Virus record (IMG/VR): IMGVR_UViG_3300019926_000016
Strand: one strand, 5' to 3'
From: a virus
DNA length: 64,000 nucleotides
Shown here: positions 669-44,218 of the stretch, piece after piece
Layout of the letters: every line of letters starts with the position of its first letter
Numbering within the stretch: the first letter of the stretch is position 1
Program-made: the position numbers and the translations under genes
Notes under the pieces: generated by a model
Seen by the model: only the letters and a program-made list of their open reading frames with translations
Databases searched by the model: none
Told to the model about the DNA's origin: nothing

Positions 669-1772
669 ATGAGTTTCGACTTCGCAGTGAACGACAGCAG
701 TACCGAGACGGTCAACAACGACAGCGACGACGTTTCCGAAGAGATTTCAACGGAGTTCGAGAACAACGAGGTGGCTGACCTGTACCTCAGTATCGGTGAC
801 TGGAAGGGAACGGTCGGTAAAATCCTCAAAGCTCTGGAAATGGAACAGCTAAAGATTTACAGCGACGACACTCTCGAAGATGTCGGTCGTCTTCTCGGTG
901 AGTACACCGAAGCCCATCCGATGCAGAAGTTGCATATGGTGGCTTCGTTGGCAAAGGCCACCGCCGGAAAGATGCAACGAGAAAACGACCACGGCATCGG
1001 TCTTCAGAAGGGCAAAGCTCCCGAAGAACACTTCGAGGAGAGTGTCAGCTACGCTCTGTTCTTCTCCGACCTTCCAGCTATCGAATGGGAGAGTCTTGAC
1101 GGTGGAGAGCGTGAAAACCTCGAAGAGATGGGCATCGACCCGTCGTCTCTCGGCTTCGACACGACCTTCGGTGGTCCGAAGCTGTTGGTGGTCGGCGGTG
1201 AACGGCTCCCCATCGTTGTCGAAGAGGGCAACGAAGTGATGGAAGCGGTGAACATCCTTCAGGGTCTTCCGGGGGAACCTTCGGCCTACACTGAAGACGG
1301 CTTCCGAGAGTCGTCTGACGGTTCGGTGTTCGGTGAAAGTGAGGATTCAACCGAGACTGAAAGCACCGAGAACGGTGGCGAAGTGAACCTCGCGGCGAAC
1401 CCCGAACGAGTCAAAGAGGTGAACGTCGGTGACATCAAAGCTGAAGTGACCGGCATCGACTCGCTTCGGACTATCCAAACGATGCTTCGAGTCGAAAGTG
1501 ACTCGGAGAGTCCTCGGTCGTCGGCCATCAAGCGACTCAAAGAGCGTCGGAACGCCCTTCAGAACGGCAGTCAGAATGAAGGGTCCGACGCTGAAGGCGA
1601 CGAAGAGGCAGATGACGACAAAGTGGCTGAAGCCGTCGATAGTGTCGAAGAGGACACCGAAGAGCAGGAACGAGAGCTTGACGAAGGCGACAAAGCTCTG
1701 ATGGCGGCAATGCTGAACAACGGTGATGTTGAGAGTCGAGAAGAAGCGAAGGAGGAAGTGCTGAAGCTGTAG
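669..1772 (+). CDS. hypothetical acidic protein with a small helical C-terminal domain
   Basis: Start moved from 411 to ATG 669 (MSFDFAV) because the upstream part overlaps the previous gene and promoter; the VNVGDIKAEV...RSSAIKRLKERR segment resembles the C-terminus of ORF 30588..30896. Confidence 0.75.
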   Translation: MSFDFAVNDSSTETVNNDSDDVSEEISTEFENNEVADLYLSIGDWKGTVGKILKALEMEQLKIYSDDTLEDVGRLLGEYTEAHPMQKLHMVASLAKATAGKMQRENDHGIGLQKGKAPEEHFEESVSYALFFSDLPAIEWESLDGGERENLEEMGIDPSSLGFDTTFGGPKLLVVGGERLPIVVEEGNEVMEAVNILQGLPGEPSAYTEDGFRESSDGSVFGESEDSTETESTENGGEVNLAANPERVKEVNVGDIKAEVTGIDSLRTIQTMLRVESDSESPRSSAIKRLKERRNALQNGSQNEGSDAEGDEEADDDKVAEAVDSVEEDTEEQERELDEGDKALMAAMLNNGDVESREEAKEEVLKL

Positions 1773-5467: not shown

Positions 5468-6037
5468 TTGGAGTGCGATTGGAGGATTCTTCAAATGAAC
5501 CAAGCAACAGCAAACGTTCAGACGACGGGTAGCATCGTGACTGACAATGGACGAAGTTTCCCCGATGATGTCTACGAAGAGACTTCACGGGCCACCGGCA
5601 ATCAGCAATGGGTCGCTGACCACTGGGCTGATGGGAAACTTCCGACTCATTCCACCAGTGGTGATGCAGTGGTTCTCTACACCGGGACTGGAAACTTCAA
5701 AGGATTCCAGTATCCTGACGGGCGAGGCAAACTGAAGCACTACAATCACATTCAAGCAATCAGAACCCGTTCAGGGCTGATTATCGGTGATAGCAGTTGC
5801 TATGCAAGAGGGATGGCACACTGTAACTATCCAACAGATGAAGACTACCGTATCAACCTGACCGAACTGAAGAAACGACTTCGAGGCGAACCAGAAGAAA
5901 TCTACGACATAACGGCAATCAGCGGCCTCGATGACGACACAATAACATTCGAGAGTGGTCGTGTCTATTCGGTTGAAGACGACGAATGGTCGGACCCTGA
6001 TGCCGACACGTCAGAACCGAACGCTCTTGGATTGTAG
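5468..6037 (+). CDS. hypothetical protein
   Basis: 189-aa ORF; true start may be the downstream ATG (MNQATAN). Confidence 0.7.
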   Translation: MECDWRILQMNQATANVQTTGSIVTDNGRSFPDDVYEETSRATGNQQWVADHWADGKLPTHSTSGDAVVLYTGTGNFKGFQYPDGRGKLKHYNHIQAIRTRSGLIIGDSSCYARGMAHCNYPTDEDYRINLTELKKRLRGEPEEIYDITAISGLDDDTITFESGRVYSVEDDEWSDPDADTSEPNALGL

Positions 6038-6076: not shown

Positions 6077-6144
6077 GGGCGAAACGGGGACCGGCCCCGT
6101 CGAGAAGGAGGTAGCCGCCCTTCTCCTGATGATGCCCACGGCTT
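6077..6144 (+). ncRNA. type II hammerhead ribozyme HH3
   Basis: GGGC-GAAA-CGGGG/CCCCG-TC-GAGAAGG/CCTTCTC-CTGATGA-T-GCCC-A-CGGCT; GUC triplet, predicted cut after C6101. Confidence 0.92.
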
Positions 6145-10256: not shown

Positions 10257-10289
10257 CATAAGACTTAACCCTTCGGGGCTTGAGTCTTA

Positions 10290-10329
10290 GGATGAAAGGG
10301 CGGCGGGCAGTTCGATTCTGCCTCATCCC
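10290..10329 (+). ncRNA. mini-tRNA-like element (acceptor stem plus T-arm only)
   Basis: GGATGA/TCATCC stacked on GGCAG-TTCGATT-CTGCC; 10-nt linker in place of the D and anticodon arms; AAGACTTAA about 30 nt upstream. Confidence 0.6.
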
Positions 10330-10361
10330 GTTGCGCCAATCCCCGGCGTTCGGTTCAAATA

Positions 10362-13223: not shown

Positions 13224-13290
13224 GGGCGAAACGGGATTCTTCCCGTTGTCGGTGAGGTAGCCGCCACCGGCCTGACGATGCCCACGGCTT
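13224..13290 (+). ncRNA. type II hammerhead ribozyme HH5
   Basis: GGGC-GAAA-CGGGA/TCCCG-TT-GTCGGTG/CACCGGC-CTGACGA-T-GCCC-A-CGGCT; predicted cut after T13247. Confidence 0.9.
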
Positions 13291-16870: not shown

Positions 16871-17116
16871 ATGGAAAGAGCATCATTGCTAATCATAGTT
16901 GGCGTTCTTCTCTTGGGCATCGGAATTTCGATGTCTCCGACGAACACTACTACCAGTACGAGTTGTAGTGACTACGATATTGGAGCAGACGAGGTAAGTT
17001 GTGAAGGAACGAGCGTCACAAAAGAAACGTCACGGAATCAACTGAAGTACCCGACAATGGCAGTCGGATTCGTAGTTGGGATTGTCGGGTTCTCGATTGC
17101 GGGAATGAAAGATTAA
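16871..17116 (+). CDS. small membrane protein (2 predicted TM segments)
   Basis: Hydrophobic N- and C-terminal stretches around a Ser/Thr-rich loop with 2 Cys. Confidence 0.65.
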   Translation: MERASLLIIVGVLLLGIGISMSPTNTTTSTSCSDYDIGADEVSCEGTSVTKETSRNQLKYPTMAVGFVVGIVGFSIAGMKD

Positions 17117-18117
17117 TCTATGTCGAACATTTCCCGCCGCAGTTCTCGCTTCTCACTCTCGCTCCGAGCGTCGTAGTGCTTTTCGAGAACGTCGGTAGAC
17201 ACGTCCATTCGGTCGCTCACCAGTTCTTTCGAGTGACCCTCGTTGAGTGCTTCTGTGATGGCACTCCGACGAAGTGGATGCGGTGAGACGGACCCCGGAC
17301 ACTGCGCGGCTTTCGAATACGCCGTCGCTTCACAGTCCTCGATGCTCCGGTCGTAAGGACAGTCGTTCGAGTATTCACAGGGTCGGGTCATCAGTCGAAC
17401 CTGCTTGCGAAGCGTCGTTCGATGCGCTCTGCCTTCTTTAGTCGTGAACAGTGGTCGGCGTCCTTCCTCGTCGGTGACTTCGTGACGGCGACCGTCGATG
17501 TAATCGTCAACGATAACGCAGACCCATTCGTGAAGATTCAACTGCCGTTCGGCAGGGTCTTTGTTCTTCAGTGGCGTTCCCGAGTCGGGACGATGGACCG
17601 CTTCGACGTACATATCCTCACTGTGGTAGTCCCGAAGGTCGAGAGCGCGAGCAGTTCCAATACGCATCCCTGTCGTCCACAGGAGAGCAAACAGGACGTG
17701 CCGCATCGAAGCGTAGTCGTAGGTCCGTAGCTGGTTCAGCAGGTCGTCAGCGTGGTCAGCATCCAGCGTGTCGTCTTTGCTTTCGTTCTCTACCTCGGGC
17801 ATCATTATGTCCTGCGCCACGTCTTCGAGTAAGTCGCGGCTCTCACACCACTTGATGAAGACCCGAAGGGTAGTCATCTGGTTGTAGAGGGAGATGTTGC
17901 TAATGTCGTCTTCGTCACGGCGGTAGAGTTGAAATTCGGATAGCTCCCAGTTGCCTATTTCTCCGACCTTCTCGGGTCTTTCAGGGTCGTCGTGACACCA
18001 ATCGACAAACTGGGTGAGTTGAGACGAGTGATTGTAGAGCGTGGAGTCGGACACGTCGGCTTTCCGTTCTTTAAGATACCGTTCTACGGCGTCGGAAATC
18101 GTAAGATTCCGGTTCAT
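17113..18117 (-). CDS. int: tyrosine recombinase/integrase (SNJ2-like haloarchaeal type)
   Basis: Catalytic R (TGMRIG), K (PLKNK), HPLRR and Y (EKHY); N-terminal core-binding domain. Confidence 0.9.
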   Translation of the reverse strand: MNRNLTISDAVERYLKERKADVSDSTLYNHSSQLTQFVDWCHDDPERPEKVGEIGNWELSEFQLYRRDEDDISNISLYNQMTTLRVFIKWCESRDLLEDVAQDIMMPEVENESKDDTLDADHADDLLNQLRTYDYASMRHVLFALLWTTGMRIGTARALDLRDYHSEDMYVEAVHRPDSGTPLKNKDPAERQLNLHEWVCVIVDDYIDGRRHEVTDEEGRRPLFTTKEGRAHRTTLRKQVRLMTRPCEYSNDCPYDRSIEDCEATAYSKAAQCPGSVSPHPLRRSAITEALNEGHSKELVSDRMDVSTDVLEKHYDARSESEKRELRREMFDID

Positions 18118-18179: not shown

Positions 18180-18205
18180 AGGCGGTTCAAATCCGCCCGA
18201 ACCCA
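18180..18205 (+). mobile_element. putative attP core: 3' end of a tRNA gene
   Basis: GGCGG-TTCAAAT-CCGCC-CGAACCC-A (T-arm plus acceptor 3' strand) with no matching 5' half; about 60 nt upstream of the int start. Confidence 0.7.
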
Positions 18206-18422
18206 CCTCGCTCCCTCCGGTCACTCACGTAGACAGCACCGCCGCCGTCTTGCGATTTAGGGGGTAAGCCGTCACGCATTTCAACCGGGGACCTCCCCCG
18301 GCCTCCTTTCGTCCCGCGATTCTCCAACAAGTAGTTATTCGAAGGTAAAAAAGGCATCGTGCGTCCCGGTCACTGCAAAAGTCACCTCACTTTCGATAAA
18401 CCGTATGACGCGATACAGAATT

Positions 18423-19684: not shown

Positions 19685-20224
19685 ATGGATACAAAAGAGA
19701 TAACTCAATCAACGACAGAACAGGATAGTGTGAACGATGAACAGATAGCGCATCTCGCTGGCTTCTTCGATGCGGCTGGAAACATCTCTCTCAGAGTGAC
19801 AAAGGACGAAGACTACCGACTCGGATTTACGCTCCGTCCGATTGTCAGGGTCTTGCGACCAAATGAAGAAGACCCGATACTCGGGAAACTAATGGAATAT
19901 GCCGATGACGAAGCCGTGAAATACAGTCTCACTGAGATTTCTCACGGCGGCGGTGGTTCAAGCACCGGATTTGTGATTACTGATACTGACAGCATCGAAC
20001 GGTTCCTCGAACCGATGTTCGAGTATATGGTCACTCAGTATATTCGAGCGAATATAATGCTCAACGAAATTCTACCGGAATTAGAAGACGGTCAACACCG
20101 AGAGAAAGAAGGATTCGTGAGGCTCGTCAGTATCGCTGACGACATCCGTAGAGAATCTGCTTCGAGCAAGAAGGTCAAATACACGGAAGAATACTTCCGT
20201 GAGATGTGGTCAATCCCCGAGTAA
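19685..20224 (+). CDS. single-motif LAGLIDADG-family protein, probably catalytically inactive
   Basis: LAGFFDAAGNISL...YRLGFTLRP aligns with I-CreI-type motif; the catalytic acidic position is Ala. Confidence 0.75.
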   Translation: MDTKEITQSTTEQDSVNDEQIAHLAGFFDAAGNISLRVTKDEDYRLGFTLRPIVRVLRPNEEDPILGKLMEYADDEAVKYSLTEISHGGGGSSTGFVITDTDSIERFLEPMFEYMVTQYIRANIMLNEILPELEDGQHREKEGFVRLVSIADDIRRESASSKKVKYTEEYFREMWSIPE

Positions 20225-20833
20225 CATCTTCTCGGCTCTGTCGGCTTCGTCATCGAGTCCTTGTTCTCGAAGACCCTCGATGTACTTCCGCACCTTCTCG
20301 GTGTCCAACGACCCGACTTTACTCTGCTGAGTGGCGGCTTGGCGGCGTTCCGTCGATGGCATCTGTGTCGGTTCTTCGACCACCTCGATAACGTTCTCGT
20401 TCTCGTCAACGTGAACAATGGCGAAGTCTTCGGGTTCGTGTTGTTCTGGTGCGTCTTCGGGATGATTCTTCCGGCCTGCTACTTGGCCGAGATGAATCAT
20501 TACTCCGTGTTTCCCTCTGAATGGCCGCTCACAGTATGGACATAGCCGTGCCACCTGTTCGGAATTTCGTTCAGATGGGTACTTCATCTCAACTTCTCTG
20601 GTTCCAATCTCTTCCGCGTCTTCGAGGCTAATCCCTTCGGGGATTTCTCCCTGCGTTCCGTGACCGTCACCGGAACTTCTGGAGACGTGAAGATGAAGAC
20701 CCCGAGAAAGGACTTCTTTCTCACATCCCTCTACGGGACAACGTACTGTTGTCTCGTCGTTTTTGTGCTTAACCGTCTTGCCGTTGCCATCAGATGCCAT
20801 TGAGGTGTACTCGTATTCAAAGAAAGAGTCCAA
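20210..20833 (-). CDS. tandem C2H2-type zinc-finger protein
   Basis: CPVEGC...LHLHVSRSSGDGH and CPYC...MIHLGQVAGRKNH; probable start ATG 20800. Confidence 0.75.
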   Translation of the reverse strand: MDSFFEYEYTSMASDGNGKTVKHKNDETTVRCPVEGCEKEVLSRGLHLHVSRSSGDGHGTQGEIPEGISLEDAEEIGTREVEMKYPSERNSEQVARLCPYCERPFRGKHGVMIHLGQVAGRKNHPEDAPEQHEPEDFAIVHVDENENVIEVVEEPTQMPSTERRQAATQQSKVGSLDTEKVRKYIEGLREQGLDDEADRAEKMLLGD

Positions 20834-21185
20834 TCACTTAAGTCCTAACAATCGTTTAACACAAACGGTAGTTTGAACGACAGGAAAAGACGGTTCCGAA
20901 GACTTGATTCCGAAGGAGTTAAGTCAATGGACCCCGTTTAGTGTAGTAGGGAGGTCGGAAAGACAGGCTACCGCCGCTTCTCGACCACCTATTCCGGGGT
21001 CGGAACCCTCGCGGGTCACTCATCCCGATACAGTCCATTTCGAAGTCGGGGCTTTCCTCCCCGCCACTCTCAAAACTTAAGAGAGTGAAGACTGTACGGG
21101 AGACTGAGGGCTATTCGCCCTCGGAAGGTTGTGTCCCGCCACTTCGGTTGGGATTCACGCGGGGTCTGGTCGCCCCGCTCTTCGT

Positions 21186-21260
21186 GCTTGCGAAGCTGAC
21201 TGGTTCAGCACAGCCCATTTGTAAGGCTGAGTTGGGTGCGTTCGAATCCACCCGCAAGCT
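21186..21260 (+). tRNA. tRNA-Thr(UGU)-like, atypical
   Basis: Acceptor GCTTGCG/CGCAAGC, D-stem GCTG/CAGC, anticodon stem CAGCC/GGCTG with a 9-nt loop CATTTGTAA, bulged T-stem. Confidence 0.7.
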
Positions 21261-21420
21261 TTGCCGTGTTGGACTCTCCGTGGTCTGACTCGGTTTTGAG
21301 AACATCACGGAGAGGTGACGCCCGACGCCTTCACCTATTCTGGACCAGTGGGAGAAAAACCACAACGGTATCGGGAAGGAGAGCCGTTGCCCGCGATACT
21401 CCACACTAAAGAAAGGGCGA

Positions 21421-21494
21421 CGGAACCAACTTCCACGCGGCAGGAAACGTGGCTGTAGACCACGCCGTTCTCGGTTCGAGGCCGAGGGTTCCGA
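21421..21494 (+). tRNA. tRNA-Tyr(GUA)
   Basis: Acceptor CGGAACC/GGTTCCG (C1-G72, A73), CGTGG-CTGTAGA-CCACG, CTCGG-TTCGAGG-CCGAG; lacks U8. Confidence 0.8.
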
Positions 21495-21619
21495 CTCGAT
21501 GGTTTGCTCGACCTGAGCCACAATAGAGAATGGTAAAATCTGGATAGTGGCGTATCCTATGCCGACGCCAGTGACATACCGGGATACCGGGAAGAAACGT
21601 TTGGCGTCTCATAAATACC

Positions 21620-21692
21620 ACGGGAGTAGGTTAGTTCGGCCAAACTTCCTGCATTGGCGCAGGAGCCTCGGGTTCAAATCCCGGCTTCCGTA
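21620..21692 (+). tRNA. tRNA-Pro(UGG)-like, atypical
   Basis: Acceptor ACGGGAG/CTTCCGT, T-loop TTCAAAT, anticodon stem CCTGC/GCAGG with a 6-nt loop ATTGGC. Confidence 0.65.
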
Positions 21693-21693
21693 T

Positions 21694-21774
21694 TGGAGAT
21701 AGCCGAGGCGCACGGCTTGGCGAAAGTATTGCACCACTGAGTGCGCTAACGGGGTTCGAGGCCCCAGTCTCCAC
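21694..21774 (+). ncRNA. degenerate tRNA-like element without a recognisable anticodon arm
   Basis: TGGAGAT/GTCTCCA, GCCG/CGGC D-like arm, GGGG-TTCGAGG-CCCC T-arm. Confidence 0.5.
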
Positions 21775-22211
21775 TCACCCCATCAGGAGTGACATTCCGA
21801 GATGGGGGCGTTCTGCGGCGTCTCGACTGCCACTGTGGAGCCTATGCCACCTCCACCGCTGGCCGGTCAGACAAAATATCCCGAACGACAGAGCGGGATT
21901 TATGAATAAAGTATGTTGAATTGTTAAATACGTTCTCTGTCAGGAGGTGCTACGATAAGTTCAATGACAAATCATAGAACTGGGTCATAAACGGAACCGT
22001 GCAGGGTGAACCGACGCCGAGCGGCGTGTCTCAAGCTGACCACACGAATAAGTGGCGATAAGAATTGCGACACCCACCTATGCAGAATATTATCTCTAAG
22101 ACTCTTCTTGCCGTCGTTTCTTCTTCTGTATGGGCTTCACAACCCACGACGGCCTTGACGCCGACTCCTAATCAGACGGGGTAAGCACCGGGCGTCTAAA
22201 CAAATTCGGAC

Positions 22212-22285
22212 AGTCCCGTAGGGTAGCAGGCCAATCCTGTTGGTCTTTGGAACCAACGACCTCGATTCAAATTCGAGCGGGACTA
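22212..22285 (+). tRNA. tRNA-Gln(UUG)
   Basis: Canonical cloverleaf AGTCCCG/CGGGACT (A1-U72), TTGGT-CTTTGGA-ACCAA, CTCGA-TTCAAAT-TCGAG. Confidence 0.9.
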
Positions 22286-22350
22286 TTGGCCGACTCAATT
22301 GGCGTTGAGAGTCGGAAACCTCACCCAACATTACGCCACTTAAGTTACCA

Positions 22351-22878
22351 ATGACAGCAATAATCGCACTGGTCAGTGGAATCGTGAACAAATTCTCGGC
22401 GGGTAGCAATGAAGTTCAGAACGGAGCCGCCGCAGTTCGGCAAGCAATCGGAGAAGTCGAAGGTCTTCAAGAGGCTGATTTCACCGCCGTTCTCGGTGAA
22501 CCAGAGATTGTGGATAACGGGAACGTGTTCTTCACGGACCCGAAGGTAGCAGTCCCGGTCAAAGAGTCGCCGTATGACAGTTTCGACCGTCTGATGTTCG
22601 ACCTGCCTCGTGGCAGAACCGACGAAGAGTCTACGTTTTTCGAACTTCTCGATTTCTTCGGACTGGACTTCGAGACGATGGAGCAGTTGGAAGATGGAAT
22701 GATTCCAGTCTTCTACGCTAAAGGATGCTTCAATATCGACTGGGATAACCTCGATAATGGCGAAGAAGAAAACCCGGATACGGAAAACGATTCTGACACT
22801 GGAACCGATGAAGAGTCAGATAGTGCCGTCAACGTCGAAGAAACGACCATTAACTCGGGTGAAGACGAAGATGCCTAA
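22351..22878 (+). CDS. hypothetical protein
   Basis: 175-aa ORF with an acidic tail. Confidence 0.75.
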   Translation: MTAIIALVSGIVNKFSAGSNEVQNGAAAVRQAIGEVEGLQEADFTAVLGEPEIVDNGNVFFTDPKVAVPVKESPYDSFDRLMFDLPRGRTDEESTFFELLDFFGLDFETMEQLEDGMIPVFYAKGCFNIDWDNLDNGEEENPDTENDSDTGTDEESDSAVNVEETTINSGEDEDA

Positions 22879-23002: not shown

Positions 23003-23154
23003 CCTGCTACGCCGCTCGGGGGTCGTGGCCTGCGGTCAAACTTCCGGGTTTCCCTCGATTCCGACTCCCCGTGCGAGCGGGCGAGTCTGCGTAAACTTCC
23101 CTGCGGTGCTGGTTGAGAGATTGGTGTACGGCGGTTCGATTCCGTCGCTCTCAC
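22982..23154 (+). ncRNA. about 170-nt RNA with a tRNA-like domain
   Basis: GAGAGC/GCTCTC acceptor-like helix, GGCGG-TTCGATT-CCGTC T-arm, TACGCC/GGTGTA helix enclosing about 100 nt. Confidence 0.5.
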
Positions 23155-42748: not shown

Positions 42749-44218
42749 ATGGCTGAATATTGTGTTTTCTGCGGCATTGAGTTTTCTCTTCAAGAAATCT
42801 GGTATCCGTACAAACACCTCAAAAATTGCGACGAACATTCAACAATGCAAACTAACACACATATCAGCGGCTCAAGTACCAATGCAAAAGTAATGCTCCC
42901 CGAATCGGAGCTTGAAGAAGGAGTCGTAGACCAGATTCAGGAAATGATAGACCACGAATCGTTCCAAAACGATGTGGCTATTATGCCGGATACGCACGTC
43001 GGAAGCGGCGCAGTTATCGGCTTTACGATGCCTCTCGGGGAACGTGTAGTTCCGAACACAATCGGAGTAGACATTGGTTGTGGGATGTACGCCGTGAACT
43101 TCGGGAACGTGGAATACGACCGGAAGACCCTGCAACTGTGGGACGAAGAAATCCGCGAGAAAGTTCCGATGGGGTTCGAGGTTCGACAAGATAGAGCCTA
43201 CCACCTCCTGAACGACTTCCCGTGGAAGAAAGCACGAGAAAAGCTTGCACAATTCGAAGAACAGTACGGCGGTCTTCGTAGTGATGTGTGGCGGTTCGAA
43301 CCAGAACTTGCGATGGATTACTTCGAAGACCTGTGCAACCGCATCGGCTACGACCAGACTCGTGCCATCAACTCGGTCGGGTCACTCGGTGGCGGTAATC
43401 ACTTCATCGAACTTGGTCACAGCGACAAGACCGGATTGTGGGCCATCATCCACAGTGGAAGCCGTGGCCTCGGGCTAAATATTGCTCAGTACCATCAGGA
43501 ACGCGCAGTTGAACTTCGAAGTGCCGAAAAGTTCGAGAAGAACGTTCTGCCTGAATATTATCGGGAGTACGCCACCGATGAATTGAAACCGAAAGCAGAC
43601 AAAATCCGTGAAGACTTCGAGGGAACCGAAATCGGACAAGTGTTCGACAAAATCAGCCAAGCTCGTCAGGAAGCAACTGAAGCGTTCAATGATGACCTTG
43701 CATACCTCGAAGGAGCAGAGGCGCACCAATACTTCGTGGATATGATTTTCGCTCAGATGTACGCTTCCCAGTCGCGGAAGCTGATAATGTCGAAGGTCGC
43801 TGAAGTCGTCGGAGCAATCCCAAAGTGTCCTATCGAGAGCGTTCACAACTTCATCGACTTCGAGGATATGACCATCCGAAAAGGTGCGACTCGTGCTTCT
43901 GAAGGCGAAATTGCCGTTGTTCCCTTCAATATGAGGGACGGGACGCTTCTCGTGGAGGGGAAAGGAAACGACCGATGGAATAACTCGGCTCCGCACGGAG
44001 CGGGTCGGGTAATGTCTCGGACTCAAGCGTTCGATGAACTGGACCTGAGAGACTTCAAGAAAACTATGGACGGTGTAGAGTCTTCGTCAGTGACCGAAGA
44101 GACGTTGGACGAAGCACCAATGGCGTACAAGTCTTCCGGCCTTATCGAGTCGGCCATTGAACCGACCGCTGAGATAGTGGACCAAATTCGACCAGTCTTG
44201 AATCTGAAGGCAGAGTGA
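42749..44218 (+). CDS. rtcB: RtcB RNA 2',3'-cyclic phosphate/3'-phosphate to 5'-OH ligase
   Basis: MPDTHVG, GVDIGCG, GSLGGGNHFIE, IHSGSRG, HNF, RKGA, SAPHGAGR, DEAPMAYK; second possible start ATG 42845. Confidence 0.97.
   Translation: MAEYCVFCGIEFSLQEIWYPYKHLKNCDEHSTMQTNTHISGSSTNAKVMLPESELEEGVVDQIQEMIDHESFQNDVAIMPDTHVGSGAVIGFTMPLGERVVPNTIGVDIGCGMYAVNFGNVEYDRKTLQLWDEEIREKVPMGFEVRQDRAYHLLNDFPWKKAREKLAQFEEQYGGLRSDVWRFEPELAMDYFEDLCNRIGYDQTRAINSVGSLGGGNHFIELGHSDKTGLWAIIHSGSRGLGLNIAQYHQERAVELRSAEKFEKNVLPEYYREYATDELKPKADKIREDFEGTEIGQVFDKISQARQEATEAFNDDLAYLEGAEAHQYFVDMIFAQMYASQSRKLIMSKVAEVVGAIPKCPIESVHNFIDFEDMTIRKGATRASEGEIAVVPFNMRDGTLLVEGKGNDRWNNSAPHGAGRVMSRTQAFDELDLRDFKKTMDGVESSSVTEETLDEAPMAYKSSGLIESAIEPTAEIVDQIRPVLNLKAE

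Follow-up and report, generated by a model that had tools for sequence, protein, structure and literature searches.

Anticodon-defective tRNA look-alikes beside two probable decoding tRNAs in a haloarchaeal tailed virus: candidate RNA-cutting signals in a replication-operon leader

Introduction

Transfer RNA (tRNA) shapes can punctuate long transcripts: in mitochondria, and in the tRNA-linked small RNAs of murid herpesvirus 68, tRNA-shaped RNase P and tRNase Z sites free the neighbouring RNAs. A closer parallel is given by the t-elements of Haloferax volcanii (e.g., upstream of 5S rRNA; Holzle 2008/2012 as cited in PMC4326828), tRNA-like structures that serve in vivo as substrates of RNase P and tRNase Z and can free an RNA placed between them. 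Here, we analysed a stretch of 64,000 nucleotides of viral DNA (IMG/VR record IMGVR_UViG_3300019926_000016; "the window" means this whole stretch), in which a cluster of tRNA-shaped elements lies at 21186-22285, and we tentatively favour the reading that three of them, a Thr(UGU)-like copy, a 'Pro-like' element and an element that we call X, are tRNA-derived, non-decoding RNase P/tRNase Z cutting signals in a replication-operon leader, alongside two decoding tRNAs.

The t-elements resemble the elements of the window in being haloarchaeal, tRNA-shaped and non-decoding and in flanking other RNAs. They differ in that the elements of the window are virus-encoded, full-size cloverleaves of visible tRNA ancestry, mixed with true tRNAs, and in that cleavage is here a prediction. 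The tRNA-like genes of the haloarchaeal virus HF2, namely the attachment site (attP) HrrHF2_450 and a weak 'tRNA-Pro' (HrrHF2_625) whose function its authors call uncertain, come from the same virus family and share low tRNA scores and unconventional folds (PMC8707807); in contrast to them, the elements of the window gave no sequence match in searches of isolate genomes, lie away from the integrase and lack a host tRNA match. HF2 also makes long primary transcripts that show up as shorter RNAs, a difference that its authors ascribe to processing (PMC8707807). Phage tRNAs that evade nucleases (PMC10264068; PMC11555353) are likewise viral, deviate in the anticodon loop and occur in a genome with an RNA repair ligase. 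The tRNA punctuation systems belong to another domain of life and depend on other polymerases, whereas the window combines canonical tRNAs, crippled tRNAs, mini-tRNAs and predicted hammerhead ribozymes in one genome. Atypical tRNA-like genes in this virus family and t-elements are thus already known; what is new here is the structural selection across viruses that appears to act on full-size, anticodon-defective tRNA look-alikes, their co-occurrence with mini-tRNAs and hammerhead matches, and the X family.

Results and Discussion

Five tRNA-shaped elements lie in the cluster

All five tRNA-shaped elements that a first-pass annotation had reported at 21186-22285 were recovered where it had placed them, on the + strand (Table 1), and its description of their acceptor stems as well paired held throughout, with 7/7 pairs in every element. 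The minimum-energy fold is a cloverleaf for all four deviant elements, that is, all but tRNA-Gln. A scan of the window for T arms enclosed by a 7-bp acceptor stem gave 12 hits against 0.7 per shuffle; tRNA-shaped elements are beyond chance in this genome. ARAGORN scoring and comparison with orthologues, both proposed with the annotation, were carried out. The former called tRNAs at 21421-21495 (Tyr, GTA) and 22212-22285 (Gln, TTG) and, between them, a 'tRNA-???' whose anticodon has just 2 nt (21620-21692), and the latter revealed stem-preserving compensatory changes in X and in the 'Pro-like' element.

In a regional run of the Rfam tRNA model (RF00005), the Gln, 'Pro-like' and Thr-like elements all scored above the 29-bit gathering score (values in Table 1), while neither tRNA-Tyr nor 21694-21774 gave a hit at E<=10. 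A gathering-mode run on the whole 64 kb returned zero hits, which we took as a filter effect in view of the three regional hits above the gathering score. Since the Rfam score tolerates loop indels, a score above the gathering threshold is no proof of decoding. A 5-bp anticodon stem with a 7-nt loop carrying U33 and a purine at position 37 is found only in Gln and Tyr; the 'Pro-like' element alone combines U8 and G53-C61 with a T stem of 5 bp and a standard D stem of 4 bp.

Two look-alikes keep a tRNA body beside an altered anticodon arm

Related loci are cited below by the labels of the retrieved DNA (L003, L004, L005, L006, L020, L032, L051, L054, L057, L065 and others); L062 is HF2, and L051 is on the same contig as L053. 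The 'Pro-like' element has the 6-nt anticodon loop first described for it (AUUGGC), and in the Rfam alignment the loop is one base short. The Pro(UGG) label itself is unsafe: ARAGORN offers Gln or Pro, and A1-U72, A73 and the D loop resemble a Gln tRNA. Pairwise comparison with 52 viral and host tRNAs pointed to no isotype ancestor, the closest tRNA other than the orthologue being 70% identical. The sole orthologue lies at 5829-5904(-) of L051, and exact-pattern scans of IMG/VR for further copies returned only contigs already known. Between the two copies, the acceptor strands, T arm and discriminator contain 2 differences (one substitution and one 1-nt indel), and 3/4 of the D-stem pairs are swapped by compensatory changes, while the anticodon arms are unlike in both sequence and length; the flanking RNA is ~79% identical.

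Element X was said to have no clear anticodon arm, and relaxed ARAGORN and folding both bear out that a standard one is missing. From its acceptor-like stem, X runs through a D-like hairpin of 6 bp and a linker of 8-9 nt to a 4-5-bp hairpin, which closes the 6-nt loop CANUGA, and on to a T arm whose stem has 4 bp and whose loop is standard. It was found in three viral contigs (the window, L051 and L005), with the 6-nt loop in 3/3. RNAalifold gave four helices with 23 pairs, 6 of which differ by compensatory double changes, half of them in the acceptor stem and half in the small hairpin. On this structure, 96.8% of cells are paired and 0/500 shuffles reach the observed covariation, and the pairing values collapse once partners are slid by 1-3 columns; judged by these alignments, structural selection on X is clear. 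Sequence is nearly invariant in the D-like hairpin, linker and T arm, as is the CANUGA loop pattern. Run on 375 kb of related loci, a covariance model of the three copies recovered only these, and exact-pattern scans of IMG/VR found nothing beyond contigs already known. The 6-bp D-like hairpin and 4-bp T stem prompted a comparison of X with class II (Ser/Leu) or Sec-type tRNAs deprived of the anticodon arm; its 5' half matched no host class II tRNA, and the hits obtained were not tRNAs.

These alignments show the structures directly, along with how well they are conserved and where they have changed by compensation. Among the functions that the first-pass annotation had offered, that of a processing signal fits best, with the acceptor stem, T arm and D arm kept by compensation while the anticodon arm drifts. 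Conserved acceptor, T and D arms combined with a free anticodon arm are expected of RNAs read by tRNA-end-processing enzymes and not by the ribosome, and it is this conservation pattern, together with the Haloferax t-elements and the processing of HF2 transcripts, that leads us to favour cutting signals.

Two other origins of the odd loops were considered and found unlikely. Sequencing or assembly error does not account for 6-nt loops that recur in three independent X assemblies and in another L051 element, and the open reading frames (ORFs) neighbouring the cluster are intact, long and uninterrupted. Introns, taken as inserts of >10 nt with a bulge-helix-bulge, do not match the Thr-like inserts of just 1-2 nt, nor X, which is 81 nt long and shows no conserved outer helix by eye.

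Table 1. Positions in the window of the cluster members, the adjoining modules and related features
Feature	Position	Strand	Basis
Conserved non-coding block before Thr(-like) tRNA	20896..21185	+	blastn, 70-78% identity to L003, L004, L005
Thr(UGU)-like tRNA	21186..21260	+	Rfam 33.1 bits; relaxed ARAGORN; alignment with five Thr orthologues; cloverleaf fold
tRNA-Tyr(GUA)	21421..21495	+	ARAGORN; comparison with host tRNA-Tyr
Conserved hairpin module upstream of 'Pro-like' element	21566..21619	+	blastn, 21566-21693 against L051 5961-5828, 79% over 135 nt
'Pro-like' tRNA-like element	21620..21692	+	ARAGORN '?(Gln|Pro)(tg)'; Rfam 43.3 bits
Element X, tRNA-like RNA	21694..21774	+	L051 and L005 orthologues; RNAalifold; pair counts; covariance model
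tRNA-Gln(UUG)	22212..22285	+	ARAGORN; Rfam 54.7 bits
Conserved hairpin-rich leader, tRNA-Gln to ORF 22351	22286..22350	+	by eye in the window, L003, L004, L005, L020
Mini-tRNA (acceptor stem and T arm only)	10289..10330	+	acceptor-plus-T-arm scan
Mini-tRNA, 0.8 kb downstream of cluster	23114..23154	+	acceptor-plus-T-arm scan; weak hit to transfer-messenger RNA (tmRNA) end, 23044-23147
T-arm and 3' acceptor fragment	18180..18206	+	~60 nt upstream of the start of integrase 17113-18117(-)
RtcB RNA ligase gene	42749..44218	+	Pfam PF01139, E 3.7e-61

The Thr-like copy keeps its stems paired but carries two indels of its own

The Thr-like copy carries the two deviations ascribed to it at the outset, a 9-nt anticodon loop (CAUUUGUAA) on a 5-bp stem and a bulged C in the T stem, on which Rfam, relaxed ARAGORN and folding agree; in the Rfam alignment they appear as a 2-nt insert in the anticodon loop and a 1-nt insert in the T stem. 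ARAGORN reports this copy solely at a relaxed threshold, modelled with a '2-nt intron', and position 8 is A. Its acceptor stem consists of 7 Watson-Crick pairs, and G1-C72, C2-G71 and U73 are invariant across six Thr copies. These nucleotides for Thr, and C1-G72 and A73 for Tyr, are synthetase identity nucleotides. The five Thr orthologues are canonical (44-67 bits), and both indels are unique to the window genome.

This copy bears most directly on plain decay, by which the Thr-like and 'Pro-like' elements would be tRNA genes recently inactivated by small indels and left functionless in a fast-turnover islet, with X standing apart. Such a history is suggested by the contrast between the window copy and its five canonical orthologues, by an islet content that varies between every pair of relatives, and by ACA and CCA being minor codons (15-16% of their families), although this codon usage does not discriminate between the readings. 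For the Thr-like copy taken singly, recent decay is possible. As an account of both elements, we regard decay as rather unlikely: all Thr-like stems are perfectly paired even though about half of the stem positions differ from the nearest orthologue, the 'Pro-like' element is defective in two lineages and yet has an almost constant acceptor stem and T arm with a compensated D stem, and structural selection on X is clear.

The Gln and Tyr tRNAs are probable decoders

Gln had been called the only canonical member of the cluster. It is indeed the only one with a fully standard outline, but A53-U61 takes the place of G53-C61. G53-C61 is near-universal in tRNAs, and Gln in L003, L004 and L051, unlike that of the window, has G-C at 53-61. 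A syntenic Gln(TTG) is present in HCTV-6, HSTV-2, L003, L004, L006, L032 and L051.

The absence of U8 from tRNA-Tyr was also right, the base being A8, and its D region is atypical: it can be drawn with a 7/10 linker of 3 nt or else with a C10.A25 mismatch. No Tyr orthologue was found by blastn against the relatives or by an exact-pattern scan of IMG/VR. This tRNA shares C1-G72, A73 and the exact 7-nt loop CUGUAGA with host tRNA-Tyr genes, and because of this host-like acceptor end and identical anticodon loop we read it as probably a working tRNA with an unusual D region.

Processing of one long precursor would account for the mixed islet

In the cutting-signal reading, Gln(UUG) and Tyr(GUA) would be the decoders, probably supplying codons that the 51% G+C virus favours more than its G+C-rich host does. 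The Thr-like, 'Pro-like' and X elements would be tRNA descendants that have lost decoding and in which selection keeps the tRNA body, i.e., the acceptor stem stacked on the T arm plus the D-arm elbow, the part that host RNase P and tRNase Z would recognise. The islet would be transcribed as one long precursor, and cleavage at the look-alikes and the true tRNAs alike would free the conserved structured RNAs and the downstream mRNA.

Several points weigh against this. The true tRNAs already give cutting sites, and it is not evident why further, non-decoding ones would be required. The sequence conservation of X goes far beyond what a plain cutting signal would need, which hints at a more specific partner. 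Both Thr-like indels, being confined to the window genome, could be recent damage. Moreover, with only 2-3 orthologues per element, the statistics are thin.

The conservation of X finds a place in another proposal, by which the deviant elements would be chargeable, deliberately non-decoding tRNA mimics, acting as decoys or inhibitors of host tRNA-cleaving defences or as RtcB substrates, with X as the sequence-specific partner of a viral or host protein. Its basis is the retained acceptor identity (Thr-type in the window; G3.U70 Ala-type in L051 and L054) in elements with anticodon loops of 6, 8 or 9 nt; we hold it to be decidedly improbable. The two Ala-type genes, L054 1387-1459(-) and L051 5439-5511(-), are tRNA-like and carry G3.U70 and A73, the alanine acceptor signature, with anticodon loops of 8 nt and 6 nt, respectively. 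For the L051 gene, there is in addition a 30.9-bit match to the ends of the tmRNA model.

If the cutting-signal reading is true, haloarchaeal tailed viruses reuse worn-out tRNA genes as RNA-cutting signals, and a single genome shapes its transcripts with true tRNAs, crippled tRNAs, mini-tRNAs and hammerhead ribozymes. It would also account for the recurring tRNA-like genes of "function uncertain" in HF1/HF2-type genomes and for the short RNAs of HF2. For annotation, the rule in these viruses would be that a hit to a tRNA model does not equal a decoder. X, as a small structured RNA family with three known members, offers a concrete target for study.

Counter-defence, unusual decoding and integration explain less

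The deviations of the cluster are concentrated in the anticodon loop, the usual target of tRNA nucleases, and the virus encodes RtcB, features that would suit tRNA mimics resisting or soaking up host tRNA nucleases (PIN/VapC, HEPN and similar), with RtcB resealing cut tRNAs. Phage tRNAs whose altered anticodon loops evade anticodon nucleases are documented (PMC10264068, PMC11555353), but these keep a 7-nt loop and still decode, whereas the loops here have 6 or 9 nt, and tRNA-Tyr, the clearest functional deviant, has exactly the loop of the host. Neither a host nuclease nor a target is known for this system. The RtcB gene lies 21 kb from the cluster and is widespread in this virus family whatever the islet content (PMC8651126), so that its link to the cluster is circumstantial. 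Overall, counter-defence seems quite improbable, and nuclease-resistant decoding tRNAs are an unlikely description of the 6-nt-loop elements.

Two putative intron-bearing tRNAs were seen among the relatives as tRNA-model hits at L020 1446-1583 (138 nt), where ARAGORN models a 65-nt intron, and at L032 9865-9959 (95 nt). If they are such tRNAs, viral RtcB would have an obvious substrate.

Enlarged anticodon loops can cause +1 frameshifting. A charged Thr-like RNA might accordingly read an extended codon or shift the frame through its 9-nt loop, and the 6-nt-loop RNAs might decode abnormally; the Thr-like copy does retain the acceptor-end nucleotides that are invariant in the six Thr copies. However, we identified no site at which such a shift might occur, the ORFs next to the cluster run on without interruption, the T-stem bulge and A8 would weaken the Thr-like fold, and the 6-nt loop sequences are unlike between orthologues, all of which makes unusual decoding very improbable.

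The least probable role for any of the deviant elements, and one to which we give hardly any weight, is that of attP for the integrase at 17113-18117. The attP of HF2 is a tRNA-like gene of low score that lies next to the integrase (PMC8707807). The cluster, however, lies 3 kb from the integrase, and beside the latter is a separate tRNA 3' fragment (18180-18206), which by analogy with HF2 is the probable attP. Among 401 sampled Halobacteria genomes, with two candidates scored per genome, a full-length match was found only for tRNA-Gln (72-79% identical to host tRNA-Gln); the other elements had no long near-identical host match, and their short matches were chance hits in coding DNA.

The islet occupies a conserved slot in relatives of HF1 and HF2

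The window, with a G+C content of ~51%, has PHROG matches to a helicase, an integrase, an ERCC4 nuclease, an HNH/LAGLIDADG endonuclease and a primase-like protein. A tblastn search of a phage collection with a conserved 500-aa protein matched 53 records, nearly all of them named haloarchaeal tailed viruses, the closest being HCTV-6, HRTV-11, HSTV-2 and HRTV-7 at ~60% identity. Together, the protein matches and these relatives place the window in or near the Hafunaviridae, as an HF1/HF2-like haloarchaeal tailed virus. No DNA-level match of the window to isolate genomes was found, and no homologue of the tRNA region or its parts was found in the isolate genomes of INPHARED.

The cluster is set in a 1.5-kb ORF-poor gap between a gene at 20210-20833 (-) on the left and one at 22351-22878 (+) on the right, the latter opening a long run of rightward genes that reaches the polymerase and RtcB genes. 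When the neighbouring protein and DNA motifs were used as queries, the slot was also located in HCTV-6, HSTV-2, HF2-type viruses and seven IMG/VR contigs; still closer relatives are represented in a large protein collection, where the neighbouring gene has 270 homologues, one cluster of which is identical to the window protein. A metagenome scan for relatives yielded mostly distant or short contigs, and L050 was dropped as a relative because it proved to be a chance locus. tRNAs are always present in the slot, and the tRNA set differs between every pair of relatives. Canonical copies in the nearest contigs include Thr(CGU or UGU) at 56-67 bits (L003, L004, L005, L020), Pro(UGG) in L004, Ala in L005 and Gln in L003, L004 and L051.

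The L051 islet is deviant in the same manner as that of the window. It holds a Thr(UGU) with G8, an 86-nt "Asp" with C33, the 'Pro-like' orthologue with A33 and another element with a 6-nt loop, as well as a copy of X and a good Gln. Despite C33, A33 or the 6-nt loop, the acceptor stems and T arms of the deviant elements are all good, and by its sequences this set is an independent case of the syndrome seen in the window.

Mini-tRNAs and hammerhead matches accompany the look-alikes

Mini-tRNAs of ~41 nt occur twice in the window and also in L005, L065, L054 and L057. L003 and L054 have in common a scaffold whose D arm is reduced (region coordinates 813-880 and 521-589); its acceptor stem differs between the two by compensatory changes, and its variable middle hairpin is not an anticodon arm. 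A related reduced-D-arm element lies in HF2 at 1430-1503(-), directly after tRNA-Asn, and has C1-G72, A73 and a Tyr-type anticodon arm. Across the window and these relatives, the elements form a continuum from canonical tRNAs through anticodon-defective ones to mini-tRNAs of ~40 nt. In the left arm of the window, hammerhead-II matches lie between genes at 6077-6141 (36.2 bits) and 13224-13287 (31.9 bits), just below the Rfam gathering score of 37; these near-threshold matches predict that the window genome cuts its transcripts by other means too.

Conserved structured modules adjoin the Thr-like, 'Pro-like' and Gln elements

The ~290-nt block at 20896-21185 is ORF-poor and, in the window as in its relatives, runs right up to the first base of the Thr(-like) tRNA; judging from this arrangement, it is the probable 5' part of the precursor. 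In the hairpin module before the 'Pro-like' element, the outer stem is altered on both sides (by eye), and in the leader that follows tRNA-Gln, the blastn match to L003 runs on to 22329.

Some smaller observations concern these modules. A 15-nt core of the upstream block (21126-21140) also occurs in HCTV-6 and, in three copies, in HSTV-2, and a 59-nt stretch around it is 90% identical to the chromosome of Natronomonas amylolytica (L080). In L051, a leader module like that at 22286-22350 comes after tRNA-Thr instead of Gln. In L004, at 3660-3547(-), a conserved module of ~110 nt separates a 5' Thr tRNA fragment from the complete Thr tRNA that comes after it; this module also stands before X in L005 (3270-3197(-)) and could be a small RNA module that was inserted or is mobile.

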